Shown: piece by piece, positions 67 through 51,145 of the stretch
How positions within the stretch are numbered: the stretch's first letter is position 1
Layout of the letters: every line of letters starts with the position of its first letter
Source of the DNA: Lingula anatina
Lineage: Eukaryota > Animalia > Brachiopoda
Direction: 5' to 3'
DNA: 64,000 nucleotides
Assembly (NCBI GenBank): GCA_051362555.1
Contig: CM120649.1
Location: forward strand, 11,222,001-11,286,000
Made by a program: the position numbers and the translations under genes
Notes under the pieces: generated by a model
Told to the model about the DNA's origin: nothing
What the model saw: the letters and a program-made list of their open reading frames with translations, nothing else
Database searches by the model: none

Positions 67-590
67 AAGACACCCCTTTATTTGTATTCTGGATTGGTAA
101 AGGTACAAGTTGGACCAGTTTCCAGGCTAAAATTTGATTGTGAAACAAGCTCTGCTAGCTTACAAAGCTTTATTATTTCCTGTACCCTTTACCCTTCCAC
201 TTGTTCTCATTTTAACTCTTATTTTTTATTTGTCATTTTATAATTATTTTAAAATGGATCATTTTATTTTCACATCAGACATTCATCTTTGAATAGTTTA
301 TGTATCAATTTTAAGAGCTCAGACAGAAACCAATTTCTGATGTATTTTTTATGGTGTAATTCTTTGATTTTTTAAATGGGAAAATGTAATAATCCTGACA
401 GAAAATCCATTTTGATCAATTATATCGAAATACAACATTGTCCAGTGACCTCACATCAAATAGATGAAGTAAAAATCCAAGTTTCTTGGATGTGTTAAAC
501 CTAGGGTACATTTACCAAGCAGTGTTTGTACAGTGCAAGTATACGGCCCATAAATATAAGCTTCATAAATTAGTGTGATTATTATCACAG

Positions 591-3500
591 GTCAGATAAA
601 ATCCAAGATCAGCGAGTAGCTTACAGCAATGACAATGGCATGAGTTGGGTCAACTATGAAAATAACCCAGTTTTAGACCGCCACAGTGAGAATTTTAGGG
701 ATCCAAAGGCAAGTATGTGTACATACATAGGTATAGGTGTGTGTGTGTGTGTGTGTGTGTAGAGGATGTGCATTTTCTGCACATGCATTCATGGGTGTGT
801 AAATGTGCAAGTATACATTTGTGTGTTTATGTGTGTAAAGTTGTTATCTAGTTTGCATTTTCTCAAAAGATTGATTACCATTCATCATATATCTTGATAT
901 ATGATGAATGGTAATCATATATCTTGATATATAAAATGCACATGCAATTAGTTTAACATGATATCTTTGTATGCAGGGCCTTTCTCACGAAAATGTGAAT
1001 TTCATTTGCTAAGCTTAGAAAGCTAAAATCAAAGAGGCAACTATGCAAAGTCAGCTTTGCAGTATTGGTCTGAAGGTTTACAAAAATGATTGACCAGCAG
1101 TAAATGAATTGGACATTCATCAACAGACTTTTATCACCTTTGACAATAAAAAAATAAAAAAATAAAAAAATAAAAATCTTAGTCAAGGCAATCAAAATTT
1201 GCTCAAGGGGCTTTGTTAAGAGGCCAACAAAGAAAAAGGTCATTTGCCTTTTTGATTCTTTATGAAAGTGCAACTTAGTTGACTACTTCTTACCAGACTA
1301 CAATTATAGCTAAAAAACTGACTTAAGAACTTTTGTTAAACAGGGTGCTGGTATAAACGTGCTAATAATCGAACAAAACTAATACCTCTTTTTTTTTCCT
1401 TCACCAGGTGTTTTGGCACCCTCCCACTAAATCATGGTGCATGTTAGCTGTTCTGGCCCAGAAACACACCATCCTTTTTTACACCTCAGTAAACCTGATA
1501 GATTGGACCCTGACGTCAGAGTTCATCCCATCTCCCAGCACTGGCGTCAGCATTGAGGGAAACTGGGAATGTCCTGATGTGTTCCCGCTGAAGGTGATAG
1601 GGGCAGGTAAGGAGGTATTTAGAACAGTTATTATGATGAGGTTGGGGGGGGGGGGGGGGGAGAGGGGAGGTGCACAGTGGGAAAGGGCCCCTCCCTCAGC
1701 TCTGGGGTATCCACCCTCCTACTCTCCCTCTTCTCACATCTAAAAATGCACCAAATGAAGCAAAACAAGACTTTTTTAGATTAAAATCTATTTAGCGATT
1801 TTAGTTGTATGCAATTTGAAATAATTTTAAAGCATGGTTTGGATCAAATAATACCTCAAATGATTAATTTTTTTCCTTCTATTATAAATACAGGTATATT
1901 AATATATATATAATTTTATTTAACAATCATGTTATTATACTGTTGTTAACTTTTTTGTTGAATGTATTTTTCCTAATGTTTTTTCTGCTTTACTTAGTTT
2001 ATCACAATTGGTCAGTTTCCATATTTTTGAATTTTTAGAACATTCTACAAAGAAATGGAATATATCATCCACAGAAGGAAAATATTTACAGACATGCTTA
2101 GAAATCATTACAATACATTTATTAAGATATTTCCCTGCTGTCATCACACATTGATTACAAGTCAAAAATATTATATTACAGCATTTTCAAAATGAGACTT
2201 AACTAAGTAAATTTTACTAACTCATGTCCTTCATATTATTATAAAAAATGATCTACTCTTTAATATTTGTCTGTCTTCCTACCCCCCTCCCCTTAAAAGA
2301 AAACAAAAAATAAATAAATAAATAAATAAATTAATTAATTAATTAATTAAAATACGTAATAAAAATCCAGGATCTGCCTTTGTATGATCTCTGCTTACAT
2401 CACTTGAGTCTGTTTGTTAGTAGAAATGGTGTGTCAAAAAGTTCTTTACAAATTTTGATGAAATATTTAGGATAGATAATTTCAGTGGAACAGTATTGCA
2501 TTGTATTGCATTGTATTGCATTGTATTGTATTGATAGCCAATCAAATAAAGTGGATTCTTAAGGTGGACACCAGTGGTAACCGCACAGAAATGTCCAGAA
2601 CTGGAGCCCAGTACTTCATAGGTAAGTGTTAATATACCATAAGATGACAATTTCCTGTCCAATCGTTTTCTATTTATCCTATGCTATCCTATCCTATACT
2701 GTCTTACCATAATCCTATGCTATCATATCCTATGCTATCCCTTAGTTTGGTCAACCATGGGGATGCCACTTGAGAATTTGGCGACCAGTTCTGTCTACTC
2801 CCATTAACACATTGAAAATGCAATAAATAAGTCAACACTAAAAGTTGATAGTACATTTTGTATCATCGACCGTTTTCACATTGTGAAGTTCATTTTTCTG
2901 TTTCTAACCATTAACATATAATTATGATAACTGGGGAAGGGGGAGGTCTCTGTTTAGATAACTCCCTTGGGGACCATTCCCATAGCATACTAGCAGGATT
3001 GTTCTATTTCAAAGGGGTTTCTTGCTAAATTGCATTTAGTTTAAGCGTGCACAAAAGTTAATTACCACCAAGCAGCTTAAGTGGGCGTGACAGACATTTA
3101 AGCCACTTAAACTGAATGCAATTTAGCAAGAACCCCCTTGGAGTAAGATCGATCCTACAAGTACAATAGGTTGACGGCAAACCACTCTTACATAATAGCC
3201 TGACCATTAAGGTTCAAATCTCTCAAACTGGTGTGAAACAGAAAGCCATAGACGAGGATATGGAAATGGCCCAAACATGAGCCCTGTATATTTTGTCCTA
3301 GGTGAATTTAATGGTACCCACTTTGTGGCAGCAGGAAAGTCTCAGTGGCTGGACTCTGGGATGGATTTCTATGCGTCCAATACCTGGAACAACAGGTACA
3401 GCCATGATGGAAGGATGATTATAATTGGCTGGGCTTGGTAAGTGCTTTGTCATCATGAAAGATACATTGATTGGTTTCTACAGTAGGGCTGTTTTGGTGC

Positions 3501-4259
3501 ATATGTATATTTGTGTGTGTTTGTGTCTGTGTAGTTTTTTAGTGTGTATGTGTGTGAGTGTCAGTCTGTAGGGTGTGTGTGTGTTTGTGTCTGTTTATCT
3601 GTTTTTAATTATGTTTGCTATATATATATATATATATAGTGTTTGTATATCTGTGTGTGTGCATTTGCAGATGTTTACAAGTGAGACAGTCTCATCCTGG
3701 GTGTGCATGTGTGTGTGTGTGTGTGCAACACGCATGTGCAATAAGGTATTTCTTTTGCTTTTTTCGTATTTTGTGTAGCAGTAATAGAATAACCATCATG
3801 ATTTGATTAAAAAATTTATTTTCATTTTTTCTACTAGCAATTGGTATTACTCAGAGAACATCCCCACCTCTCCTTTCCGAGGCATGATGAGTATTCCGCG
3901 GGTCTTGTCTCTGCTGCCGTATGGGGATGGACTGCACCTGGCACAACAGCCAATACAGGAGCTGCAATCTCTGCGCGGTGACCCAATCACGTTTGCTCCT
4001 AACCCAGTTGTCACAGTAAGTGGGGGACTGATGTTATCTCAAACAAAAACAGATATGTAGTTTGAATTGTTTGCTGTGTCTAATGTGATAATGTGCTACT
4101 TTTTCACTGTGGAGGTGGGAGAAATCTCACTACTGTTCAGTCTCTTTAATTAAGTTTTTAGCGATAAGAACCACTGAGTGGGACAACATTTTTTTTATGT
4201 ACAGACACAGATGTGTCTGTACATATAGCCATCATCTGCGTCTGTCGTCGCCGTCGCCG

Positions 4260-4290
<31 letters not shown>

Positions 4291-7200
4291 GCACTTTTAC
4301 CGATAACACGATAAGTGGAAAACCATTTTACCTTTTGACTTGAAACTTGCAGAACTGATGAATATTCATAATACGCAGGTCAAGTTCGAAAATCAGCATG
4401 ATCGGGTCACTTTTAGGGAATTTATGCTGTTTTTTCACTTTTTTCAGCATATATGCAGCACCGATAACACGATAAGTGAAAAACCATTTTACCTTTTGAC
4501 TTGAAACTTACAGAACTGATGAATATTCATAATACGCAAGTCGAGTTCGAAAATCAGCATGATCGGGTCATTTTTAGGGAAGTTATGCTGTTTTTTTTCA
4601 CTTTTTTCAGCATAAATGCAGCACCGATAACACGATAAGTGAAAAACCGTTTTACCTTTTGGCTTGAAACTTACAGAACTGATGAATATTCATAATACAC
4701 AAGTCGAGTTCGAAAATCGGCATGATCGGGCCATGTTTAGGGGAGTTATGCGGTTTCTTTCACTTTTTTCAGCATAAATGCAGCACCGATAACACGATAA
4801 GTGAAAAACCGTTTTACCTTTTGGCTTGAAACTTACAGAACTGATGAATATTCATAATACACAAGTCGAGTTCGAAAATCAGCATGATCGGGCCATTTTT
4901 AGGGGAGTTATGCGGTTTTTTCATTTTTTTCAGCATAAATGCAACACCGATAACACGATAAGTGAAAAACCGTTTTACCTTTTGGCTTGAAACTTACAGA
5001 ACTGATGAATATTCTTAATACGCAGGTCAAGTTCGAAAATCAGCATGATCGGGCCATATTTGTGGAAGTTATGCTGCTTTTTCACTATTTCAGCATATGT
5101 GCAACACCGATAACACATTTCAAGGAAAATTAATTGGCCAATCGTCTTGAAATTCACAGGGTGATCAAATATTCTAAAATACAGATGAGGTTCGAAAATA
5201 AGCTTGATCGGTTCAGTTTTGGTGAAATTGTGCCTTTTTTTGTATATGAGTCTTTTTTCCTCGGATTTAATTCTTAGGCATGTTAACAATCTCATTTGTG
5301 AACTAATTAGTAATGTAAAGGTGTTCTTTTGACATTTTCTGCATCTTAACAATATTGTTAGTTGATTATATAAAAATGATGGTAAACCTGTTATTGTGCA
5401 TTGTGTAATAAAGTGCCAAAAATGGAAATAAACTCATATCTTTACAGTTTGTCAGATTCAATCATTCACCATGTTCAGAATCTCAGAATGGAACAAATTG
5501 GACATTTAAAATTGTTCTATTGATATTTTTCCTATGTCAACAACTTTCTTAGTTGATCATTTAAAAACGACAGTAAATTGATTATTTTGATATATGTAAA
5601 AAAAAGTGTTGAAAGTGGAAAGAAATTCATTTCAGTACAGTTATCTCTTGTGTACATTTTGGCATTTTGAAGTTGTGACTCTGAACTTCCATGGCCCTGA
5701 AGACCTTTCCATATCAAATTTTCTGAATATCCATGATATTTTTATTTTATTATTAAAAATTGATGGTCATTATGCTGTTATGCATTATGTAATATGGTAT
5801 CAAAATTTAAGACAACCCCATTTTAGACAATGCCTCCATAGTGACCATTAAAGGAAAACCAAGTCACTTACTCTTCTCAAACTTATAGAAATGTAGTATA
5901 GCACTAAATTATAGCTTCAGTTGGAAAAGCTGTTATATCGGTTAACTTTCTTGGAAATTATATAGTTTTTTGTTACAATTAAAATTTTCACATATTAACA
6001 TTTTCAAGGTGTGACTTAGTCTTTGAACTTCCATTGGCTTGAATACCATTGCTAGTCACATCTTTTGAATAGCAATGATACATTTACTTTATTATTAAAA
6101 ATTGATGGCCATTGTGCTGTTAAGCATTATGTTAAATTGCATAAAAGATGAAAAAAAACCTTTTTTGGACATCGCTGCTAGGATGACCATTAAGGAAAAA
6201 CCATTTTACTTATGATATTCTAACTTACTGAAAAGTTTCATAGGACTGAAGTGTAGCTTGTGTTGGAAATCAGTGTGATTGTTTTCTGTATTGTAAGCAT
6301 TGCAGCTGTATGGAGTGCTATATGGGGCTACTGTTTATGGATGGTGGTAATTGTCCCTTGGGATAATCACTAGCTAAATTCAGAGCTATAAAATTACTTG
6401 CCTAATTGATTTTCAAGTGCCCATTAAATAAGATTACATAAAACACACGTTGAGATTTCCCATTCAAGTCCTATAGGTTAAGCTCTCTTAACTGTGTCAC
6501 ATAATTAGGAATTGGTGATAATTATGCAGGTAAATCTTGTTTAATATTGCAAATAAGTTTACAAAAGAAAAAAAAAATTGTAATGCCAACATTAATGCTA
6601 CAGATGAATAACAGTGCCTTATTATCCTCAAACACATTGGGGTTATTCATATCATGTTAATACAGCAAGATTAAAAGTTTGAATAGCAGCTTTATTGGAA
6701 TTTTTTTTTTTTTTTTGTTTTCTTTTTAATTTTTTTCTAAACACTGGCATTTTCAACTCCCATCCACCTGAAGCTCTTCAGATTTTCTGTATTTCCACAT
6801 AAGCAGTTGCATAGGTTTTTATGTCTTTAAACATTATGTAATATTATTTTATGCACTGTCAACATTTTTCAAATATGGGGATTTTCATTATGTGAATTTG
6901 AACTCTCATAGTCCAGAAACTGTTATCTTATTGCAGGGGTAGATTGAGGCCGCCTTCTGGGTCTTTCAGATGACGGTCAGATTTTAAAGTTTACATTGAC
7001 TGGTATCAATTTTTTTGTGTTGGAAGACCATCAAAAGTGTAGGATGGATCAACAAAGATACTTTGGAATACTGTCAGAAAATATCTCTGGATCTGCTCCT
7101 GTTATTGACCATGTTATCTGTTGTGCATGATTAAAAATCAGTGTTAACTGACTGTGTTATTATAAGCATTATTTATTATTGCATCAAAATTGACAAAATG

Positions 7201-8175
7201 ACCTATTTTGCATCTTTATTTTCTGTTTTTTTGTCTGTACATTTGACAGCTTTGCTGCCTTGTTAATAAATTTATGTGACAACATCATTATCAAGCTGGT
7301 TGTTGTTTGTTGATGCCCTGTAAAAGTTTCTCTCTCATGGTTGTCCTTGAAAATATTTTGTTCCAAAGTAAGTTATGATTATCACTAAAATATTACTAAA
7401 TAGATGCCCTTGGAATCAAGAACAGTCCAATAGATAATGCCCACTCTTTGTTATAAACAGCTGAAAGTTTAATATGACAGTCTTCATGCTAGATTTACCA
7501 GAAAGGTGTGATTGATACTCACATAATATGCTACCAAAATACTGTGTGTCAAAAACATTATTGCCATTACAGCCATTGGGTAAATCCCATTAAAAAGTAA
7601 TCAGTAAAACAATCTAAGTTAGTTTATGTTTTTGTCATTTTTGTCAAATTTTACTAGACAAATTTATTTATTAGCCATTTTTTAAACTTTTTTTGTCCTC
7701 CTTCCCCTTCTTTCAGGCAGATGGCTATGCAGTGCAATTCAACACAAATCACGTAAGGTCTCTTGAAATTTTCCTCAATGTGACGGTGCTCTCCAGAGAC
7801 AAGCTGAAGGAGTTTGGTTTAAAGCTCATGAAAGGTCCTAGCCAGGAACTTGTGATAGGATGGAGATCTGATGACCAATCTTTCTTCATAAACCGCACAG
7901 CATCAGGGATCGTGGACATGGCGCCTCATTTTCCTGTGGTGAACTGTACACAGGTTCCGCTGAATCAAGATGGCCGAATGTGGGCACAAATTTTTCTCGA
8001 CTGGTGTTCCGTGGAGGTTTTCGTTAACGGAGGCGTTGTGACCTTCACCGACCTTTTCTTCCCAGATACCAACCAGGACATAATGGAATTTTATTGGACA
8101 GGTGCCAAGGACGCCATCACATATGACTTGGGTGGTTACGAGATGACTTCCATTTGGAAAAAAGCAAAGAACTGA
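591..8175 (+). CDS. Glycoside hydrolase family 32 (levanase/exo-inulinase/beta-fructofuranosidase-like), spliced, 5'-truncated by the window
   Basis: Exons 591-708, 1408-1606, 2538-2621, 3302-3437, 3838-4015 and 7717-8175 join in frame: ..QRVAYSNDNGMSWVNYENNPVL..FRDPK|VFWH..GNWECPDVFPL..KWILKV..AQYFIG|EFNGTHF..WLDSGMDFYA..IIGWACNWYYSENIPTSPFRGMMSIPR..IFLDWCSVEVFVNGG..FTDLFFP..stop. RDP, WECPD and SVEVF are hallmark GH32 motifs. The NDPNG nucleophile exon was not found and presumably lies upstream. Confidence 0.93.
872..917. repeat. Perfect 22-bp inverted repeat with a 2-nt loop in a GH32 intron
   Basis: TGATTACCATTCATCATATATC-TT-GATATATGATGAATGGTAATCA, followed immediately by a direct re-copy of CATATATCTTGATATAT. 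Confidence 0.85.
2675..2800 (-). mobile_element. Possible degenerate 3' tail of an RTE-type LINE/SINE
   Basis: The minus strand reads GTGGCATCCCCATGGTTGACCAAACTAAGGG followed by a (GATAG/CATAG)n tail. This resembles RTE 3' ends by visual recall only. Confidence 0.3.
2970..3170. mobile_element. Degenerate copy of the GATCGATC Tourist-like MITE family
   Basis: Starts GACCATTCCCATAG and contains TAATTA, TTAAGC and GATCGATC motifs shared with the copies at 9621, 14752, 21897, 22126 and 24891. Boundaries are approximate. Confidence 0.55.
4189..7264 (+). mobile_element. Helentron-associated interspersed element (HINE/DINE-1-like), non-autonomous, in the last GH32 intron
   Basis: T-run, then a 5' hairpin ATGTACAGACAC-agat-GTGTCTGTACAT (4197-4224), a (GTCGCC)n microsatellite and a 162-bp tandem array. 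The 3' end has the subTIR GTCTGTACAT (7233-7242), a short hairpin GACAGC-ttt-GCTGCC and TTGTT. Confidence 0.72.
4300..5240. repeat. About 162-bp tandem repeat, 5 copies plus 1 diverged copy
   Basis: CCGATAACAC recurs at 4300, 4461, 4624, 4786, 4947 and 5107. Confidence 0.95.
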
Positions 8176-10590: not shown

Positions 10591-13500
10591 TCATCCATTG
10601 AATACCATGTAATCGGGATCGTCGGAGTCACTGTCCACACTCCACTGTCTCCTGCTGCGTTCTGGTAAACAAAAAATTGCCGTGTATAAATTGATAATAG
10701 TTGAAGTGGTTATGAATATTAAATATTTAAAGTCACTTATTTTGCCTTTTGTTCAATTACTTATTTCAAATATTTATGACAAAAACAGCAAGTAAATATT
10801 TGATTAGTATGATTAATAACCATATGTGCAATATTACTTGCTACTTTCAAAGATTTGCTCCCCTTTTTTTTCTCGTCAGAAGAGCCTAGTCAATGAAACA
10901 ACGGATTAATTTTCCGTTTCATATTACTTCTGCCAGCGAACCAAGCTATATTTCCATCATCGCTACATGTAGTTTGTAGACTAGATATCTTTTAAAAGTC
11001 CTCAAATTGTGATTGAATTATTGGGATAGTCATTTATTCGGGAAGGAAAAAGAGACCACCGTTTTAACTGGATTCGAGTTTCCCTGTATTTTTCGAAGAA
11101 GCCATATTTCTTACTTTATTTCGTTATTATTTTTATTTTCTCTTTCAGTAATATCTAGTTGATTTTTAACTGAATAAAATCTATTCATCTCAAACCATCA
11201 GCGATCATGTTTTTAGTGTGAAAGCAATACCAGCCAAGATAAAGCAGTTAAAGCGACAAACTTCGTGCGCTTCCGTCACACAAGACGGAGGGCGGAATCA
11301 GCCGAGGTTCTCCGAACTTACCAATACTGTCCAGAATATTAGGATCACTGCACGACCTATAGAGAGGATGCTCCTTTGGGCTCAAGGGATGTTCAGATTT
11401 AGACGAAGGAATGTGAGCTGGGCTTACAGATATGCGACCATTTACTGAAAAAAATTCATGAATGTACCAAAAACGGTTCTTGAACGTTTCAAAAATACCA
11501 GTACATAGAAAGCAAGTGCCTGTCAATATGAATTTTTTATGACCGAAATAAATTAATACGGATGATGCTTCTGAATTAAGAATCTTCCAATAAAGGGAAA
11601 GAGACGCAGGAATGAACAGATATTATCGTAGAAAAAGCTTTAAAAGGATACAGTGCGAGTTAGACATATAGTAATAAATGAATGAAAATTTTCCTTGGAA
11701 TTCAAACTGTTTTCACCTTTAAATAAGGTATATCCATTCCAAAACTGTTGTGAAAAAACAATGCATAAAACTAAGTTTGGTGTTAAGGAAAAATGCTGAA
11801 ACTTCATACGTACATATCTAACGCACATTGCATGCCTTTAACCTTTCCGAACGCAAAAAATATACTGTTAGAAATACTTACTTTGACTTATAGAGAGATA
11901 ACTTGCTCCTGATCCTGAACTCTGACCCGTTCCCGTCTTGTTCTCAAAATCTGACGGTGATGGCATCTCCAGACTAACTGGGCGGGGCTCCGCAATCGAA
12001 CGTCTTCTCTGGATCACTTGGACTAAAATGGACAAATCGATATTCTTTTTAATTTATTAAAGTCCAAAGGTATAAATGTAAGTGTAATTTGTTAGTTATA
12101 ATCCCCTTCGTGCAGCGTCCAAAATACATTGATACTGTTCCCAGATACTTCTTATGTTGTCTGCATTGGAGCAAAAATATCTGAAAACACTTACTTTCGC
12201 ATATTGATAGTTTTCTCTGCAAGAGCAATTACCGTAAACATTCTTCATCTTCATTTTTAAACAACACAAATATTTCGAGAGTGAGTGAGAGAGAGAGAAT
12301 GAGAGAGAGACAGAGGCAGAGAGAGAGAGAGAGAGAGTGCATGTGTGTGTGAGAGAGATAACATTACCAGGTTTTATTTTCAGGTTCAATGTAAGTTTAT
12401 CGGGTCTAGGGGGAGGCTCTGGCGTTTGTTCACCTGGTATGGCATATTCACCTGAACCTGAGGATTCTAAACAAATCAAATAAAATATGTATATCAAATA
12501 GCCATTATAGGAGAAGACAGCGGGCACGTGCCGCGCCCTTGGCTTTAGAGGTACCTTCTCTCTAATTAATTAATACATAATTAAGGTGCTGTAAAAATAC
12601 ACAATTTTCAATAATAATAACAATATTTTTATTTTATCATCCTATCTATAGAGACCATTAAAAACCTCTTTCATCCCTAAGCCCTATATTACGCGGTGAA
12701 GTTGCCTTCGCACGCTATCCATTGCTTCATACTTGTGCCCCCTAAACCAAATGCTGGTGGTATTGATTATTTTACATTCAGTCTTTAATATACTGCCATT
12801 TTTGTTGACTATCTCTGGTAAATAAAGGAGTGTTAATTTTCGTGGTGATCGCCACTCGTCGCTAGGTGTCTGACAGCCAATGCATATTATACACTTACCT
12901 GACTGGCGGTATTTGTGGGTGATTATCATGTAAGCGACGCACACATATTGTTTAATATATAGGCCTAATATTACTGTTTTATAAAAAAAATATTACTGTT
13001 GGTTTCTTGCCACATTGGAGGATGCTACTGTATGAAATAGCATCAATCATGGGACAAGTCAAAATTGTATAAATATTACACAAACCGTGAGCTTCACTGA
13101 CGTTATTTAAGCCTCTCTTACAACCCGTCGTGCGTGCTTAGAGATCGTGCGTCCTCGGAGTTCTTGTCAGACGTAGCGTTGTCGCAGGATGAAAATTAAA
13201 TCGCAGCGGACGAAGTAATAAGTACTTTAGGAGTAGGTGTGTCGTGCTCTAAACGTGGGGCCCGCAAGTGGTCTGTACGCCCTTTTTTGGAAGTAGAAAG
13301 AAGTAAGGAGCACGTACGATCTGTACTTGTGTCGCACACAGTGAGTGAGATAATCAAACGTGTATTGCAAGTTAAGCGTACGTTTTCAGAAATCGTACTT
13401 ACGAAGTAAGAGAAACGTAAGAGAAACGTAATAAGCACGGAAGTGGAACGCACGGATAATATAATAAATAATAATATATAATAAATAATATAAAGGGAGC

Positions 13501-15633
13501 ACCGAGTATCTTCATCATTCACTGTTTTGGCTTCCAAAATGGCACTTCCAAGAAGGATGCGCCATCGACTTCTACAGCTACTAATGCTACAGGAGACCGA
13601 AGATCACGACGCAATGCTTGCAGTGGTTGCTCGGGATCGCCTGCACTTTTATCGTGCTGGGCACGTGCGTCGTCTTAGTGTGACGCACTTCACAAGTATG
13701 GTAGTAGTACTCGCCACGCACTTTGGAAGTAAGATAAACGCACGGAGGAAGTGCACTCACCCCCCTTTTTGTTAAAACGTACATTGAAAGCAAGTTGAAC
13801 GTACGAGTCTCTTGCGTGGTAAGTACGTCTTCGTGGTAAAATACCCCGGAATTTCTGCATGCTTTTCCTGCGTTACACGCACGCCTAGCGCACTTACTCA
13901 GTACTTTTGTCTTGCGTGCTACGAGCGTGCTCCAGGCGTTTTAATTGTCGCAGACAGGTCGTAGCGAAAAACTGGCCGGCCAGTTTTCGGGCTGCGTGCT
14001 TTGCGTCGTGTTTGCGTCCACCAAAAAAAGTACGTTCCACGTGCGTGTATCTTACTACTTGGCCAATTTTTTGCACGCAAACCGCTCGTAGAAGCACGCA
14101 CGACCGGTTGTAAGAGTAGCTTTAAAGAGTCGAAGGAATCAGCCACATATCACATACCGGTCTGCCACGTGGTATTAGATCTTTCTTTAACAGGGAGAGG
14201 TTGAGGTGGTCGTCCGCTGAGGTGTTTCCTCTGAACCGGTCTGGAAAACTCCTGCATCAACAGCTCTTTACTCGGAATATACTGATGGGTCTGGAAGGGA
14301 TGATACGTTGACAAGACTTAAGGTAACTATTTTTTACTGAATGGTTAAACCTTACTCCACCCCTACACACACGCGTGCGCACACACACACACACACACAC
14401 ACACGCATACCACGCACACACATATAGGCACTCGCACATACACAGACACTCCCACACGCAAACACACTTGGAATTTGCTTCCTATAGCCTGTGTTCATAA
14501 TTTGATGCTGCACATACAAGTATTATTACGTGCATTACAAACTATAATAAAAATACCTAGTACACAAAAAATAATCGTCTTAATACAAGCCTAGATATAG
14601 TAAAATATAACCCAGTGACTTTCATATTGAAGCACCTAGCAACATGAGCCACCCTGAGTGTAAAGTGTAAAGACATGCTGAAAGCGGAGGTTAGATTACC
14701 GCTTTATAATCACTGTTGCTCAGGGTGGCAGTATGAGATAACGCTAAATAAGACTGGGTTCCCATACTTGGATCTGGATCGACCTAACTCCCTGGGGGTT
14801 CACGCTAAATTGCTATTAGCTCAAGAGGCTTAAATGTCTGTCACGCCTACCGAATCAGCTAGGGGTAAAGATAATTACCCCCTAACAGCTTTACAAGGCG
14901 TGACAGACATTTAAGCCAGTTAGTTTGATAGCAATATAGTGAGAGTCCCCAGGGAGATAGATCGATCCAAATATCTGTGGGAATGGTCCTCTACCTTGAA
15001 TGTGTAGCCGACGTCTATCTCGCTGTATTTCCTTGGCCTGGGTAACTCGATCTTGTCCGATAAATTTCCGACCACTCGCGCACTGTCCATTTTACCTGGT
15101 GAAAAAGAAGCCTGCGTTCACATCTGGGCTAAATTAGACAGATAAACGTGTATAACTTACATGAAATAGACTAACAAATCTATTACTGGACTTACAATTT
15201 GTCCAGTTGATGACATGGCGTCCCCCTCAGCCGTTCCGTTCCCCTTAGAATACAGATGAATTATTCTCACCCCTGTTTCGTACTCTGTGTCAAACTGTTA
15301 TGATACACAGATTAAACATGTATACCGAATGCGTCGTCAACTAAACAAAATAGAGTAATAGATTTAAATACGAATTATTTTATGTTAAATATAACTGGTT
15401 GACTCGCATACTGTACATAGTGTATAATTTAATTCAACTACGTAGGGTGCTAGTCAGGTTCCATAATTTTCCATTAAAAATAGTATAACTACGAAATGGA
15501 AACAAAAACATCCAAATTTCCATCCTGTGGCCTACACGGTACATTTAAATTACCCTCGTCTTCTCAAAATGAACCAGTAACTTTTCCACATGTCTGTCCA
15601 GAGCATCGTCATCAGGGTCTTCATCTTTACATT

Positions 15634-15685
<52 letters not shown>

Positions 15686-17014
15686 CCGTGCCCCAAAGTC
15701 CTGAATCCACCAATGAAAATGCGAGTGTGCGGCTGTCACCGGCCAAATTTCGAACATCATACTTGAGATTGTTCTCTTCTTTTTAATAGGTATGCCATAT
15801 TATTTTTAAAAGTTGGTCAAGATCAAGTAGACATAAATATATATATATTGAGACACGTTACTTTTAAAGGAGCCCTCTTTAGTCTGACGCGTAGGTGTAC
15901 TTCTCGGCATCAGCACGGTTACCAACTGCTGCTGGGCCATAGCCACGTGCAAGCCATTCTCGTGCAGGACTCGGTTAGCTTCGGCCAGCACCCTGACTGC
16001 CTCACGTGCCTTGCAGTGCTGTGATAAAACATCAGTAAGCTTGTTTAGAACATATACATAGGGAATTTAGCTCTTAAAATAAAAAGGTTAGTTAGGGTTA
16101 AGTTTTGAACACAAATACAATAAGTAACTGATAAGCATAAAAATTAGGAGTTTGGAAGATAAAATTGTAATGACGTTATATAAGCAAGTGCATTCCTTGA
16201 TTATAAATGTACCTTTAATCTCTGTACAGCAATATGAAGCTGTGCTCGTACCTTATTTATGTTGAGAGCATCCGTTTTGGCCTCCAAGTCCAGCTGACTT
16301 TCCTCTACCAGTGATTTAGCCTACATTAAAAAAAGATTCCATTGATAAATTTTTGACAAATGCTCAACAATTTTGCCCTGTAAGACAACAAGCGATACAT
16401 CAGATCTCTCCTTATGTTGACTCATACGGCGTGGGGCAACACCCCACCCCACCCCATTCCCGCACCCCACATGACCAGGGGTTGTTTTCGCCCTCTCTTC
16501 TTCGTCCGTCAACTTTTAAAGTCGTCCAAAGTTCCAGAGATTACTTCAAACTCACCCCAATAGTCAGCCTTTTACTGACAACGGCAGAGGTATGATGGCA
16601 TTGGGAACGAGTGTTCAGTACTCGCTGAAACTCAGGGTGACAAAGGGTTTATTTATTTATTTATTTATTTTTATTTCTTTATTTTATTTATTTTTTTTTT
16701 GCCTTTAGAATACTCACTGTGGGTAGTGGGCAAAAGAGTGATTTAAATGAAAACATTAAGTTTGTTCCAATTACGTATCGCCAGGGAAGTTTTCTTACCT
16801 TTATGTATTCTAACTGCGTGCTTTCAAGTTTCCGACCCTCTCCTTTCTTCATCAAATGATCCAACTGGAATCACAAACGTTTGAGAAGTATGCTTTACTA
16901 GATCTCTGACACCTACTGACGTCCGCAGATAGTCCATTAATACTGATAAAAACTGATAAATATACTAATTACATTTTACTCATTGGTTGATATAGAGGAC
17001 ACAGTGGAACACGC

Positions 17015-17065
<51 letters not shown>

Positions 17066-20000
17066 GTCAATCAGCTTCGGAGAAACCCCTTCCTCGCTCT
17101 TGTCCCCCCCCCCCTCAAAAAAGGATACCCCAGTGCCCTATAAATAGCTCATTTAGTAACAGTCAAATATCACTCGCCATCTACATGTACATGTATCTAC
17201 TACAGTATATACCAATTAGCACGGCAAAACAGTAATCCTACTCATTCCACCCCGGATCCGCCTTATACAAAATGCAAGAATCATATTATCATCAGCATCA
17301 ATTGATTCATTATACTGAATTCGTGCGTAAACGTGTCATTTTAATTAATTTTAATTTAAAATGTCACAAGAATTGCTCAACCTCCGTGATATATACATGC
17401 GCACTAATGGTAATAATTGAAATGCTTTGTAAAAAATTTCTGAATAATAAATTTTAATTTGTCATATTTTAAACCATAATGACATGAATTAGGTATTCAA
17501 GTACCTGTTTCTCCAATTTGTTTGTTTTTCCTTTGAGCTCCAAGTAATTTTTCCTGGCTTCGTCAACTTCTTTGGTTTCCGTTAAAATTTCTTTGAACTG
17601 TTTTCTATAATGTTCGTACTGGAAAAGATTCCAAATAAAAAAAAATCACACAGACACTAATATACAATATCTAAACAAAGATGCTGAACAGATTTTTGTT
17701 GTTTCTTTTCCATTATCAAGCTCTCCCTTAATGCTAAAGACACCATAATACAACCCATTTATCACGATATCCTTCAAGAAGAGAGTAGCAGCCTTTAATT
17801 TTTCATAAAAATGCTTTTGTTAATAATTCATGTACATTCAACTGAGGATGCAAAAAAATGGGTTTCAGCTCAATAAACTATTAATTTACAGTGAAAGTAA
17901 ACATCACTATCATGAAAACCATACAGTGATTTAGGGGCACTCTTAAAAGAAAAGAAAAAAACAGGTGAGCGGCATTGAAAGTTTTTGGTAAAACGCAACT
18001 TGATCGTCTCTCCGGAGACCGATTTTCGACGATCCTGTATTGTGGATCAGACACGGTTCTGTGCCATTGACCTAAAACCCAAAACTAATCACGTGAGAAG
18101 GGGAAACGATCATTCGAGGTCGATCAGCGCTTCTATAGTAATACGGACACTGTTTCTCCAATTTATTCCTAATAAAAGTTTTTGTATAAAAACATTTGTA
18201 CAAAAATAAGGGGTTTCTTATGCGTTGTAAAATTATCAGAATTATATAAGTAAGAACTGTACCAGAATTGGAACTCGGCTATGCGGGAGCTCTTACTGCA
18301 ATGACTGGTGATGGAGCAGAGGATTTTTTATGTAATATTGTACTGTCTGTACATCGACTCATTGTAATTTATAAATAAATTATTTTGATGCTTGAAGATG
18401 AAGTGATTTTGGTCATTGAGAGTTATTAGACGATAAATGATTTATATACGTTTAAGCATCAGCGAAGTAGAATATACCAGCTATTATTGCGTGGACAATA
18501 TTAACTCGCACATTGGCATACTGTGCTCCAACAATCTCCTATCTTACTATTTCATATACTTGTAATCTAGATAATGCCTGAATCATAATACCTGATAACA
18601 TGGTTTCTAATCAAGATATCGCAAGTACAATAATGGATTAAATGTATAGCAATTGTAACACATACGAACGACAGTTAATAAGCACACACACGTACATACA
18701 TAAACGCACACACTTTGACATGAAGGTTTTTTTAAAGAAACATTACAAGCCAATTGTAGGTCGCAGGCTGCGGAAACAGAAGCAGTTGCCCCTTCCCCAG
18801 TGATGTTTTAAAAATACGTATTATCTAAATTGTCAACCCTTTCTCTACTACAAGTCACATACTTTCTCCAGCGCCTGGATGAGTACCGCGGGCAATACAA
18901 ATGTGTGTTGTGCACCTACCCTAACCATTCCCTTACCTTAAAATCCTGCTTTGACACTATATTTTAGTAGTACGCTGGTACATATAGCTCCAGGGGTTTA
19001 ATTTTGCTAGGGGGAAGGGGGAGGATAAAAATACGAAATAGTGGGCAAGGCTAACATTACTGATGGTACAGGTATGAAAAGAATTGCTTGAATTTCTCTC
19101 GGTTCGTTTTTATTTTATTTTATTTTATTTTATTTTATTTTATTTTATTTTATTTTATTTTATTTTATTTTTTTTTTTTTGGGGGGGGGGGGGGAGGAGA
19201 AGGGAGAGCGGGTGAAGGGGGTTCCTCCGTGATTAGAGGCTTCTAGGTATGAAAAGTGCTTGAGAGCTTTAACACCTTGTTCCCTCAGTTTTCACGTGTA
19301 CAGTATATACAGTGTATCGTATATGCAGATGCAGTAATTGGCCTTCTGGTTCCGAATCACGCTGTTATATGACATGATTCTATAGTAACTCTGAACAAAA
19401 AACACGGGGTGACAAGGATCATGTTTATTTATTTATTTATTCGTGTGTTTGTTTGTTTCGATAGGCCTATATGGTCTATTTTGTCTTTGTGCGGCTGAAA
19501 GAGGTGGCGGTAGGGATGAGGGGGTAAAATAGGGGTGTGGGGACAGGATAAAAAGGGGTGAGGGGTAACAATGGGGTATGTAGAGAGAGGCTGACAAGGG
19601 GGGTGGTGAAAGGATAACAATGGGGGTGTAGGGATAACAAAGGGATGTGGGGGAGCACCTGTTTCCTTACCTGTTCCATATAGTTATCAAGCAGCTCTGT
19701 CCACAGCGTGTCTACTTCGTACATCGTCATGAACAAATCTCTCAGTCCAGAGTTGGCCTCACTCTTCAGCCATTTAGCAAGGTGTGTGGACGCTTGAATG
19801 TAAATAGATAGAAACTGAATGACAGGGCCAGGGAGCAAAGTGGACCACGTGTACGCCTTCTCATCCCCTCCCCCCCCCAAAAAAAAATAATAAGGAGGAG
19901 GTACCTCTCTACTCGCCTCCAAAAAGTTTAACAAGCCACACAAAAACCAGGCAATATGACCATCCTTCGGACCTTATATATTATAGTAAAATTATTTTCG

Positions 20001-20936
20001 ACAAAGTTTTTTTTTTATTTGCCGAGCGAAACCTTCCCAGCCCAGAAATCCCCAGAATTTGTCAGTGAAAAGAGTTGATTATTATAAATCATATTTATAG
20101 GCTTTACACTGAACATAAAATTTATATATACGCTATGAAACCGGCCAAAATTCTTGTTACAAAGTATGGAATATTTCAACAGAATATCAGTGGATTGGTT
20201 GGGATAAGGTTAAAAAAAGACAGACGCAACATGATTAGCTCATCTTTCAGATATAAAAAAACACTATCACCCTTTAGTACAAGTTTTGCTGGACAATATT
20301 TTATTTTAATTACGCTGACAGGAATAATAGTACATTTAACCTGTCATTCTGATCAGATTATATTTGTCACACAGGATAACTTCTAATGTGCGCCACTGCG
20401 ATCATCTGTTTCTCTATCATTACTTAATGTGAAAACTGTCACAGCAGAATAGAGAAAAATGAATACGTCTTTAGCTTTCGAAGTATCCCATACTTGCAGG
20501 AAGAGGACACATTACAGAAGGGTAATTAGCAATACAAATTATGATCAATCAAGATTAATATACTATATTCAGCATAATTTGCCGTCACGAATGAACGTAG
20601 TAAGTCTCTATTTCCATTACAACAGTACGTGATTCAAAACTAGAAAGGCAGAACTCGTAACTCTAGGAATGGTTTTGAATATGATATACAACGCTGATTA
20701 AATTGTAAAATTAAATTGATTAAATTGTAAAAGTGGTGAAATTTTCAATCAAAAAATTTAAACTTTTGTTCCGTCTATAAAGTTTTAGCGGTCTTTGTTT
20801 GCCTATTAACCCTACCTTGTCTCTTAGCTTCTATCATTTTACGCAGGGACTGAGCGACCATCTTCTCGTGATAAATCACCATCCCCAGGTCCCAGTGGGT
20901 CCCGTGGGAGAACCGAGTGGCCACCCTGCGGAACAT
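10591..20936 (-). CDS. Pil1/Lsp1 (eisosome)-like BAR-domain protein with a disordered Tyr/Pro-motif tail, 13 exons, about 455 aa
   Basis: Minus-strand exons 20936-20816, 19792-19671, 17618-17505, 16864-16799, 16320-16213, 16018-15862, 15624-15554, 15243-15196, 15111-14995, 14290-14158, 12466-12368, 12022-11882 and 10661-10591 all have GT-AG boundaries and compatible phases. They sum to 1368 nt from GCC-ATG to TGA. N-terminus: MFRRVATRFSHGTHWDLGMVIYHEKMVAQSLRKMIEAKRQASTHLAKWLKSEANSGLRDLFMTMYEVDTLWTELLDNYMEQYEHYRKQFKEILTETKEVDEAR. The gene model is well supported (weakest site: acceptor at 15111); the family call is from manual alignment only. Confidence 0.8.
13110..14121. mobile_element. PIF/Harbinger-like non-autonomous DNA transposon (1012 bp) in an intron of the Pil1-like gene
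   Basis: About 30-bp TIRs AGCCTCTCTTACAACCCGTCGTGCGTGCTT / AAGCACGCACGACCGGTTGTAAGAGTAGCT, with a TTA target duplication at 13107-13109 and 14122-14124. The interior is GC-rich with many CGTGC/GCACG motifs. Confidence 0.85.
14752..14991. mobile_element. GATCGATC Tourist-like MITE abutting a splice donor
   Basis: GACTGGGTTCCCATAC...GATCGATCC..GTGGGAATGGTCCTC, inverted relative to the 9621 copy. Confidence 0.7.
15636..15683. repeat. (CA)n microsatellite
   Basis: Direct reading. Similar tracts occur at about 738-760, 14380-14404, 17031-17063 and 55851-55890. Confidence 0.95.
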
Positions 20937-21896
20937 GGCCTCACGTCTCCAGCGGTCACTATGCAGTGAAACTCCTCCGCCCTCTTTTTCCCTTTTTACA
21001 CAGGGTACCAAATTGCAAGTCAGAGGGCTTTTCTGCTTATTTTTGTATTCAGTAGTGTCAGTGGAATTGTTATAATCCTTGGTAGAGAAATATTTGCTTA
21101 TTGTTAAGATTCTTCTCAGCCATTAACATAATGAATGCATGTCAGTCCAACGCTTGTAATGTCTACTTTAGCATGGAGTGTTGCGTTAAATTTGCCCGCC
21201 GTGCATTGACCTTAGTATTATCAACACAACTTCCGTGTTCGGGGTGTTTAAATAACAGCGCTCGAATGACAGAGTTATGATCTTCCTCTAGTCGGTTTTA
21301 CTGCACTAGACTTTCGCACTCTTGGTTTTAAAGTGCTTTTTACGAAATTGCCACTTTAATACTGTCTATACATGTGACCGGCGTTCGGTTTGTCCTTTCA
21401 GACATGTCGATCAATCCCAGTAGACCACGTAGTTAGGGGTTCCTCGCTCCGACCCGTCTGGGATTGTTGGGCTATTTCTAGCCTTTACCTTGTCGACCTT
21501 AAAAAAGGGTGGCCTTAATTTCGGTCATCTAAGGACATGTAAACGGCTGGAATGAGTCCCTGTGTAGCAACTGCAGTGTGTCACTAGTTTCACCACTCTT
21601 TGTGCTATATGTATGACATATTGTGCAGTCGACCTAACGTCACATTTCAAATAGATCAACGATCAGACTGATAAACTGCTCCCCTTATCGGATTCCACTG
21701 CTGTTTGAACAACAGAGTCACATACTAATCTCTGCACTCGATTTATCTGCTACGTCCACAGAATAATCCCAATGAGAACCACGTACAATGTGTATTCTGA
21801 AATCAGAGTGGCCTCTGAAATAGTATAGAAGATTGAAGAATACAATTATTTTGTAACAGACTACCGATACTAGCGGGCCCTATGGTCAGAGAGTAA

Positions 21897-50019: not shown

Positions 50020-50508
50020 TTAAAAGTCTGGATCTGAATCATCATCCCATTCACAAGTCTCTACACCACCCTCAAATTCCACCTCTACGTCATACTCGTA
50101 ACCAGGATCTCCAGGCTTCTTTCTGTTCTTCTCAAACGACTCCTCCATGACAGCTTTTTTAGCAGCCAATGTCCTATCATCTGCCTTGTTCAAGTCCTCC
50201 TCTGGATCGATAGTTTCTAGTTTCTCTCTCTCTCTTAAACTGTCCTCCAAACTTATCCCTTTCATTTTATCCTGAATCACAGTCAGCAGTTTCTCCAGCT
50301 GTCTCAAGGGGATGTTTTGTAAATATTTTTCATGTTTTTTATTGAGTCTCAGTTCATCAACTGCGCGTTGTATCCCAGAATTCTTGGTGAAGTTCCGCAC
50401 AGGCATTGTGCGACGGTGAAGTTTGTTCTTAGATACAATGAGGTAAGTTACGATGATAGCTGGGGGGTTGAAACGTATTCCACATTTCTTCAGTTGAATG
50501 TCTGTCAT
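50020..50508 (-). CDS. CEP19: Centrosomal protein of 19 kDa
   Basis: 162 aa with KKCGIRFNPPAI, RTMPVRNF, LRQLEKL, IDPEEDLNK, FEKN and YDVEVEF, all recognisable CEP19 motifs. A splice acceptor near 50549 implies upstream non-coding exon(s) at about 51457-51590. Confidence 0.96.
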   Translation of the reverse strand: MTDIQLKKCGIRFNPPAIIVTYLIVSKNKLHRRTMPVRNFTKNSGIQRAVDELRLNKKHEKYLQNIPLRQLEKLLTVIQDKMKGISLEDSLREREKLETIDPEEDLNKADDRTLAAKKAVMEESFEKNRKKPGDPGYEYDVEVEFEGGVETCEWDDDSDPDF

Positions 50509-51145
50509 ATTTGCTTTTAGCTTTGGCTTTACATTGGCCTGTTAAAATCTGCAAAAATTGAACAAGAAAATGATGTAAGCAAAAACTAGACAGCATTTCA
50601 AAGCACAGAACTCTATGGACGGAAAAAAGAAAGGCAATAGTACTTCTTTAAGGGTTTAAAACAAAAACAAAATTATTTTAAAACTACCAGGATAGGATTA
50701 AGTTCACAAAACTGTAATCACTTCTTTTCCTCCTGAAAATGTCTTTGTCAAAATAAAAAAAAAGACTTCTCGCCCACTAACAAACAGACAGACAAATGCT
50801 GATAAGAACATAACCTCCTTTGATTAGGTTACAGGCAATAATTATAGCAGTCAGCATACAGATGCTAATAAAATCTTATGGAAAAAAATTAATGTGTTAG
50901 AGAAGGTGTGAGGCACATCGTTTTTGAACTGATGTCAAGATGTAGGTAATGACCCATTTGTGTGGAATTCCTACTGAAAAATATGTGTATAATTAATATG
51001 GATTAAATAAGAGAAGGCTTTCTACCCCCGAAACATAGCACAGCTAAGCTTACAGCACTTGTGCGCCGATGAAGTGAAATGTAAACCCCTTCCCACCCCA
51101 ATACGGTACACACACAGTAAAATTCATTTCCTAGGCAACTGAATA

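Follow-up and report, generated by a model that had tools for sequence, protein, structure and literature searches.

We identified in the brachiopod Lingula anatina an intact 12-exon animal gene that very probably encodes a divergent member of the Pil1/Lsp1 family of BAR proteins. The gene lies on the minus strand of a 64,000-nucleotide (nt) stretch (assembly GCA_051362555.1, contig CM120649.1, positions 11,222,001 to 11,286,000), called the window here, and runs in window numbering from an ATG at 20936 to a stop ending at 10591. No stretch-sensitive membrane domain is better understood than the eisosome, whose core proteins are regarded as fungal. We consider it probable that the Lingula gene is an ancestrally inherited Pil1/Lsp1-type BAR gene whose product would be a curved membrane-binding and membrane-bending dimer with a partner-docking tail.

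Joined by coordinates, the exons give a phase-consistent spliced open reading frame (ORF) with a coding sequence of 1317 nt for 438 amino acids (aa), in which the only stop is the terminal one and all 11 introns are GT-AG. The gene is LOC106169769, whose RefSeq-named product is listed as an "uncharacterized protein" (P0001 below); our spliced product agrees with it at 437 of 438 residues, the mismatch falling at residue 28. A word-index search with exon 2 as query returned a single protein, P0001, at 438 aa, and P0001 is spread over 12 coding exons within 20936-10591:

Coding exon 1, aa 1-40: 20816..20936, minus strand; ATG, short basic N-terminal helix (aa 2-8) and start of BAR helix 1 with Lys25.
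Coding exon 2, aa 41-81: 19671..19792, minus strand; end of helix 1 with Trp48, start of helix 2.
Coding exon 3, aa 82-119: 17505..17618, minus strand; helix 2 with Arg86, Lys90, Leu93 and Arg103.
Coding exon 4, aa 120-141: 16799..16864, minus strand; BAR arm tip and start of helix 3.
Coding exon 5, aa 142-164: 16252..16320, minus strand; helix 3.
Coding exon 6, aa 165-217: 15862..16018, minus strand; end of helix 3, conserved Pro202 and start of helix 4; the acceptor at 16018 preserves the family register.
Coding exon 7, aa 217-250: 14995..15095, minus strand; helix 4 (aa 211-232), superposing on the Lsp1 helix that ends at residue 261.
Coding exon 8, aa 251-295: 14158..14290, minus strand; beginning of the Ser/Pro-rich tail, predicted disordered.
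Coding exon 9, aa 295-328: 12368..12466, minus strand; tail; an acidic-Tyr motif lies near 301 and a PxxPxR motif at 310-315, and the homologue P0002 echoes each of them.
Coding exon 10, aa 328-375: 11882..12022, minus strand; tail, predicted disordered.
Coding exon 11, aa 375-416: 11322..11444, minus strand; tail, predicted disordered.
Coding exon 12, aa 416-438 and stop: 10591..10661, minus strand; acidic C-terminus with a Tyr433 motif.

The initial annotation, made from the letters of the window, had drawn the gene limits and the phase-consistent ORF exactly, and had counted 13 exons; we find 12 coding exons, and the spliced chain needs no other. A 13th exon placed in intron 6 gave early stops in all nine extra-exon combinations tested. 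Three frame-preserving candidate cassettes exist across all 11 introns (two in intron 4, one in intron 8), and these were rejected on comparison with P0002, the closest homologue (38% identity over 321 columns), which is collinear with P0001 over residues 16-316 with no Lingula-side insert at any junction. Another possible acceptor, 21 nt upstream of exon 6, was discarded as well, since the alignments with the family and with P0002 leave no place for the 7 residues it would add. Within intron 8, positions 13106-14125 hold an element of about 1 kb whose inverted ends, 34 nt each, are 88% complementary and enclose a further inverted pair; it looks like a non-autonomous DNA transposon. Intron 7 carries at 14772-14972 a hairpin-like inverted repeat with 94-nt arms, 77% complementary, and a 13-nt loop.

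The family-level evidence for homology to Pil1/Lsp1 is strong. An exhaustive phmmer search with P0001 yielded 74 relatives at E <= 0.001. When these were compared with Pfam, 34 matched Pil1 at E <= 0.01 and 13 reached the curated cut-off, six of the 13 being named animal proteins; two matched FAM92, below cut-off. A profile of 60 rows (A1) run against PDB sequences found Lsp1 at 2e-18 and Pil1 at 3e-14, with FAM92 at 1.5e-4 and amphiphysin at 0.36. An animal-only profile (A2), made from 17 named animal proteins to exclude help from Capsaspora, found Lsp1 at E 9e-14, Pil1 at 8e-12 (aligned from Pil1 residue 41) and FAM92 at 1.3e-3, the FAM92 match being confined to profile positions 111-197. 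We also scored P0001 with a profile of 31 proteins of a second animal subfamily (subfamily B, described below) that contained no Lingula-side sequence; P0001 reached 111.5 bits and reversed P0001 -15.6. A search combining a profile with the word index found 3 proteins among 7985 candidates scored. The Capsaspora owczarzaki protein CAOG_01508 is matched by P0001 at 4e-16 and itself finds Pil1 at 1e-14, and a nematode protein used as a lone query finds Lsp1 at 1.3e-4.

The initial annotation held that a better match to FAM92, SNX-BAR or arfaptin would speak against Pil1 kinship; these comparisons were run, and the best profile and structural matches are Pil1/Lsp1. Its by-eye alignment of helix 1, from the N-terminal Phe-Arg-Arg to Trp48 (Pil1 Trp89), is correct on the profile alignments, as is its pairing of Tyr85, Arg86 and Lys90 with Pil1 Tyr125, Arg126 and Lys130. 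Its Tyr-Glu-Val match in helix 2 is four residues off: Tyr65 to Tyr85 spans 20 residues in Lingula and Tyr109 to Tyr125 spans 16 in Pil1, and this four-letter match is, judged from the alignments, a coincidence.

The Lingula protein is predicted to have a BAR-superfamily fold with three long helices. In the alignment-based AlphaFold2 model of P0001, 215 residues have a predicted local distance difference test (pLDDT) score of at least 90, and helices are predicted at residues 2-8, 15-50, 55-126, 129-200 and 211-232, followed by a low-confidence tail. The helices at 15-50, 55-126 and 129-200 stand at pLDDT > 90 in the BAR arrangement of this predicted model; the N-terminal helix 2-8 (hydrophobic moment 0.71) is less certain, with pLDDT 59 for residues 1-10. 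The predicted order, a short helix at the N-terminus followed by the three BAR helices and then one more, is that of Lsp1. Foldseek with this model placed Lsp1/Pil1 at ranks 1-6 (1e-6 to 1.4e-5), the next match being SNX1-SNX5 at 3.2e-4. By VIA, Lsp1 reached Z 16.6 (root-mean-square deviation (rmsd) 3.3, 208 aligned) and 16.5 (rmsd 3.2, 217 aligned), arfaptin came next as a family at Z 13.6 (rmsd 2.8, 182 aligned), and the top 28 rows were BAR proteins throughout. Model residues 1-235 superpose by VIA on residues 39-261 of 8QB8, and among the top ten VIA rows only those of Lsp1 extend the alignment to model residue 235. An earlier single-sequence AlphaFold2 model (mean pLDDT 54.5), superseded by the alignment-based one, gave Lsp1/Pil1 at Foldseek ranks 1-6 as well. 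Atlas's own model of P0001, compared by structure, has the Lsp1/Pil1 cluster at the top (TM 0.73, score 544; next 226).

We then asked which functional residues of Pil1 are kept in Lingula. According to the accessible text of PMC11324527, the amphipathic helix of Pil1 spans residues 39-48; R126, K130 and R133 contact phosphatidylinositol 4,5-bisphosphate (PI(4,5)P2), R43, K66 and R70 contact phosphatidylserine, and F33, Y40, F42 and F50 are the sterol residues. Lattice contacts are described there at residues 1-8, 145, 155, 158 and 171-186. The 1-8 arm links Pil1 dimers. Residue numbers were transferred to Lingula through the profile alignments. The basic pocket retains four of six residues (Arg3, Lys25, Arg86 and Lys90, equivalent to Pil1 Arg43, Lys66, Arg126 and Lys130). 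Phe2, Arg3 and Arg4 align with Pil1 Phe42, Arg43 and Arg44, Arg103 keeps Pil1 Arg143, and the position of Trp48 is Trp in 76 of the 77 aligned rows. A basic side chain (Lys or Arg) is found at the position of Pil1 Lys66 in 61 of 72 rows; for Arg126 the count is 62 of 77. Lysines stand at the positions of Pil1 Tyr155 and Tyr158, but the placement of the tip gap differs between the Pil1 and Lsp1 alignments.

Lingula is not alone in having such a gene. We looked up organisms for 30 of the 74 relatives, of which 18 gave one, and two Mya proteins were named separately. The named animal relatives come from Stylophora, Acropora, Convolutriloba, Ptychodera, Acanthaster, Branchiostoma, Lineus, Tubulanus, Littorina, Plakobranchus, Pinctada, Mya, Lepeophtheirus, Clastoptera and the nematode Aphelenchus (one of its names reads Aphelenchoides); those outside the animals come from Capsaspora, the choanoflagellates Microstomoeca and Salpingoeca (from EukProt accessions) and the fungus Gonapodya. 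The relatives cover corals, an acoel, deuterostome invertebrates, spiralians, arthropods, a nematode, choanoflagellates and Capsaspora. No vertebrate is among the named relatives; organisms were named for only a minority of the 74 matches, so vertebrate absence is not implied. The sole fungal match of the P0001 search ranks 62 of 75. The initial annotation had offered two origins, retention from an opisthokont ancestor and acquisition; retention fits better, given that the family reaches Capsaspora, two choanoflagellates and a wide range of animal phyla.

Several individual relatives deserve a remark of their own. The nematode protein P0067 (KAH7725079.1, Aphelenchus avenae) scores 27.0 bits against Pfam Pil1 and has no Lys66 or Arg126 equivalent; both it and P0043 are named zinc-binding alcohol dehydrogenase, apparently a mis-transferred label. 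P0062 (KAJ3335322.1, Gonapodya sp.) carries a pair of Pil1 domains in tandem (two Pfam stretches, 125.4 bits), and this double domain may be a real fusion or an annotation merge of two genes. Gonapodya is an early-diverging fungus, and the accessible text of PMC3128537 reports no homologues among chytrids. In P0034 the family member sits behind a mitochondrial ribosomal protein L51/S25 domain, probably through a gene-model merge.

To order these relatives we built a tree with IQ-TREE from 66 rows and 240 columns, 11 of 77 rows being dropped for having <150 aligned positions. It was rooted on the two Gonapodya domains of one fungal protein with no other BAR-family outgroup, and the root is weak. 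Mollusc, arthropod and nematode proteins form subfamily B, which joins a Salpingoeca-containing group at 100/98, and these together join Capsaspora and Microstomoeca at 96/95. Outside that branch lies subfamily A, containing the Lingula, nemertean, coral, acoel and deuterostome proteins, with weak support as one group (76/77); within it P0001 groups with nemertean proteins (97/93), where long branches meet. Forcing the 16 named animal rows together was marginally rejected (p-AU from the approximately unbiased test, 0.044), a question posed after the first tree was seen. A duplication older than animals is a likely but not settled source of the two subfamilies. They also differ at the Lys130 site, which is basic in 13 of 15 A rows and, among 31 B rows, basic in 3 and acidic in 28, and in their tails, with PPxY in 1 of 13 A tails vs 26 of 27 B tails and median lengths of 270 aa in A and 95 aa in B. 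The tail traits are independent of the tree columns; the Lys130 site is not. The Lingula tail, about 200 residues or about half of the protein, is Ser/Pro-rich and predicted disordered.

A number of results weigh against the assignment or against a Pil1-like function. P0001 alone finds Pil1 (PF13805) as its best Pfam family (E 7.5e-4, 19.5 bits), and no FAM92 (PF06730) match appears in that scan; its score falls beneath the Pil1 gathering cut-off of 27 bits, so we treat P0001 as a divergent variant and not as a Pfam-defined Pil1 member. Pil1 is matched by none of the 11 exon pieces in an exon-by-exon Pfam scan, phmmer with P0001 alone against the PDB returned no Pil1/Lsp1 chain at E <= 10, and identity to Lsp1/Pil1 is 15-20%. 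Ranked by language-model features, the Pil1 cluster of Atlas is just 26th of 30, with FAM92 clusters higher. This single-protein evidence for Pil1 kinship, taken alone, is suggestive only. By VIA geometry the single-sequence model leaves the BAR families tied (Lsp1 Z 11.9, rank 8; arfaptin 12.9). AlphaFold2 training probably included 3PLT, which we take to have been released in 2011, so the fold match is not fully independent. In the pocket, Gln29 stands at Arg70 and Leu93 at Arg133, sites that are basic in 4 of 73 and 3 of 77 family rows; both arginines are also absent from the fungal Gonapodya domains. Pil1 Lys148 is unretained, and Arg145 (Asn105 in Lingula) is not evidently so either. The Lingula protein begins at about Pil1 residue 41 and has no counterpart of Phe33, Tyr40 or the residue 1-8 lattice arm; this start site is shared by the RefSeq-named model and most relatives, and no search was made for an upstream coding exon. 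A yeast-like lattice is not assured. Tail motifs are enriched over shuffled tails (PxxPxR in 7 of 13 A tails vs 1.9 expected, acidic-Tyr motifs in 8 of 13 vs 3.8 expected) as a statistical lead only, the A tails being mutually related; a five-letter proline pattern found in 4 of 13 tails was set aside, having been chosen from the Lingula tail itself. Finally, RNA reads from 4 of 9 listed runs (6-25% of each) compared with 19250-21400 gave none on exons 1-2, matches being short repeat-like bits only; the comparison had no positive control and is uninformative on expression.

Weighing both sides, we favor an ancestrally inherited, membrane-shaping Pil1/Lsp1-type protein. The gene was likely inherited from a single-celled ancestor. 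By analogy with known BAR proteins, the N-terminal 235 residues would form a curved antiparallel dimer, whose basic pocket would grip the PI(4,5)P2 and phosphatidylserine head groups of an acidic, PI(4,5)P2-rich membrane, with the short helix at the N-terminus inserting into the inner leaflet; the protein would thereby sense or impose curvature. PxxPxR motifs bind SH3 domains and acidic-Tyr motifs bind SH2 domains, and the tail of about 200 residues might, more tentatively, use these two kinds of site to dock signaling partners. Membrane binding and bending by the Lingula protein is likely on these grounds. That it builds eisosome-like furrows is rather unlikely: one of three lattice contacts is absent, and the family members Meu14 and Ssp1 act elsewhere. 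The homology proposed in the initial annotation is upheld, and its "eisosome-type" function is a putative further step for a protein missing the lattice arm.

The protein could instead be a true animal eisosome core, forming a Pil1-like lattice and stable plasma-membrane furrows that buffer membrane tension. The entire Lsp1 architecture superposes from the amphipathic-helix region to helix 4, the pocket retains four of its six basic residues with the Lys130 charge kept across most of subfamily A, and the accessible text of PMC3128537 describes yeast Pil1/Lsp1 tubulating membranes in mammalian cells without other fungal proteins. We nevertheless regard this as doubtful, given that the 1-8 arm is absent, that retention of Arg145 and of tyrosines 155/158 at the tip is not evident (the tip register being unsure), and that Meu14 and Ssp1 work at the rim of the prospore membrane rather than in eisosomes according to the accessible text of PMC12470953, so membership does not fix function; no report of brachiopod furrows came up, and no search was aimed at such furrows. 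Less probable again is a repurposed signaling adaptor, in which the BAR dimer merely anchors the tail at the membrane with little bending. In its favor, the Ser/Pro-rich tail bearing PxxPxR and acidic-Tyr motifs takes up roughly half of the chain, and two pocket arginines and the lattice contacts are lost, but the N-terminal basic helix, with its moment of 0.71, and the basic residues of the concave face are conserved family-wide.

A chance likeness to Pil1 in some other BAR protein (FAM92/CIBAR, SNX-BAR or arfaptin) or in a generic coiled coil is very improbable. It would account for the two FAM92-matching relatives, the VIA tie on the single-sequence model and the feature ranking of FAM92 clusters above Pil1; it is largely refuted by the roughly ten orders of magnitude between Lsp1 and FAM92 with the animal-only profile, the VIA Z gap of 3 and the Capsaspora bridge protein. 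Least credible of all is that the gene came into the Lingula lineage from a fungus by horizontal transfer, or that the DNA is a fungal contaminant. The accessible text of PMC3128537 describes significant Pil1/Lsp1 matches by BLAST as restricted to fungi, and an adjoining glycosidase gene is possibly of foreign origin; against this stand the eleven GT-AG introns, the animal neighbor genes, relatives comprising 16 other named animal proteins, two choanoflagellates and Capsaspora, the low rank of the lone fungal match and the grouping of P0001 with nemertean proteins. A broader and more speculative proposal, which we hold to be unlikely as a whole, is that animals never lost the eisosome scaffold. 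After a duplication that preceded the choanoflagellate split, the Lingula-type proteins (corals, acoel, nemerteans, starfish, acorn worm, amphioxus) would keep most of the PI(4,5)P2 pocket and build tension-sensing furrows tied to SH3/SH2 signaling, and the PPxY-type, including the nematode protein, could be the missing meisosome scaffold.

In the literature we found no animal Pil1 homologue described in titles or abstracts, most subscription papers and supplements being outside coverage, and no work linking Pil1 with Lingula, Pil1 or eisosomes with Capsaspora, or studying CAOG_01508. The one animal mention of PF13805 that turned up was a non-significant match on a tapeworm cystatin and was discarded. 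Pil1/Lsp1 are treated as fungal in the accessible parts of PMC13312728 and PMC6723945, those of the latter containing neither "animal" nor "metazoa". The accessible text of PMC10010689 states that animals have no direct Pil1 or LSP-1 orthologues, likens nematode meisosomes, rich in a PIP2 marker, to eisosomes, and gives VHA-5 and RAL-1 as the only known meisosome markers. The animal homology is partly visible in databases already, as automatic PF13805 labels on some animal proteins; a Mya arenaria protein bears such a precomputed label. Together, these results describe an unstudied family with Pil1 architecture and most of its lipid pocket in wall-less cells, and place the beginnings of the scaffold no later than the ancestor that fungi and animals share. 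They also supply named genes for tests in tractable invertebrates, including a nematode candidate for the PIP2-rich meisosomes.

The neighbors of the gene, a GH32 glycosidase gene, five rhodopsin-like G-protein-coupled receptor (GPCR) ORFs and CEP19, make an animal setting. The multi-exon GH32 gene lies at about 574-8175 on the plus strand, its last exon matching the Pfam GH32 C-terminal domain at E 1.9e-21 and more exon-like ORFs lying near 574, 1369, 3211 and 3788. It is presumably levanase- or inulinase-like and, for an animal gene, may be of foreign origin. Inside one of its introns, at about 4300-5430, is a tandem repeat with a unit of ~160 nt, seen as repeated ORF translations. In the GPCR array, five ORFs, each of one exon and similar to the others, lie in tandem at 25515-45998 on the minus strand and measure 383-441 aa from stop to stop; two of the five were scanned, matching the 7tm_1 or Srg chemoreceptor families. 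The CEP19-like gene is one ORF at 50020-50541 on the minus strand (Pfam E 3.2e-52).

Among known systems, the closest is S. cerevisiae Pil1/Lsp1 (PF13805; PDB 3PLT, 8QB7, 8QB8, 8QB9), which matches best in both profile and structure across the full domain (Pil1 41-261 against residues 1-235). The two share the order of N-terminal helix, three BAR helices, helix 4 and disordered C-terminal tail, and Lingula has equivalents of Arg43, Lys66, Trp89, Arg126, Lys130 and Arg143. Unlike Pil1/Lsp1, it lacks the N-terminal 40 residues and hence the lattice arm, does not keep Arg70, Arg133 or Lys148, nor evidently Arg145, has ~6-7 extra residues at the tip and 7 extra in helix 3, and ends in a tail of ~200 residues with a PxxPxR motif. 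The uncharacterised Capsaspora protein CAOG_01508 (P0011) scores 84.9 bits against Pfam Pil1, besides its match to P0001, and keeps the equivalents of Lys66, Arg126, Lys130 and Arg133; in contrast to Lingula it is 260 aa long and almost tail-less. Animal subfamily B (mollusc, arthropod and nematode proteins, with an Atlas cluster of 176 mostly arthropod members) has the same domain, and a sea-slug member matches the arthropod Atlas cluster at TM 0.96 with Pil1 next, whereas its acidic Lys130 site, PPxY tails and shorter tails set it apart from Lingula. FAM92/CIBAR1 (PDB 9UHD, 8CEG) is the nearest other BAR family by profile (E 1.5e-4 with A1, 1.3e-3 with A2), but the match is confined to the helix 2-3 hairpin and the VIA score is Z 12.0 vs 16.6 for Lsp1. 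S. pombe Meu14 and S. cerevisiae Ssp1 offer, in the accessible text of PMC12470953, a precedent for a divergent Pil1-type BAR protein recognized by structure that shapes a non-eisosome membrane; they are likened to the Lingula protein by description rather than by sequence, and unlike it they are fungal and sporulation-specific.

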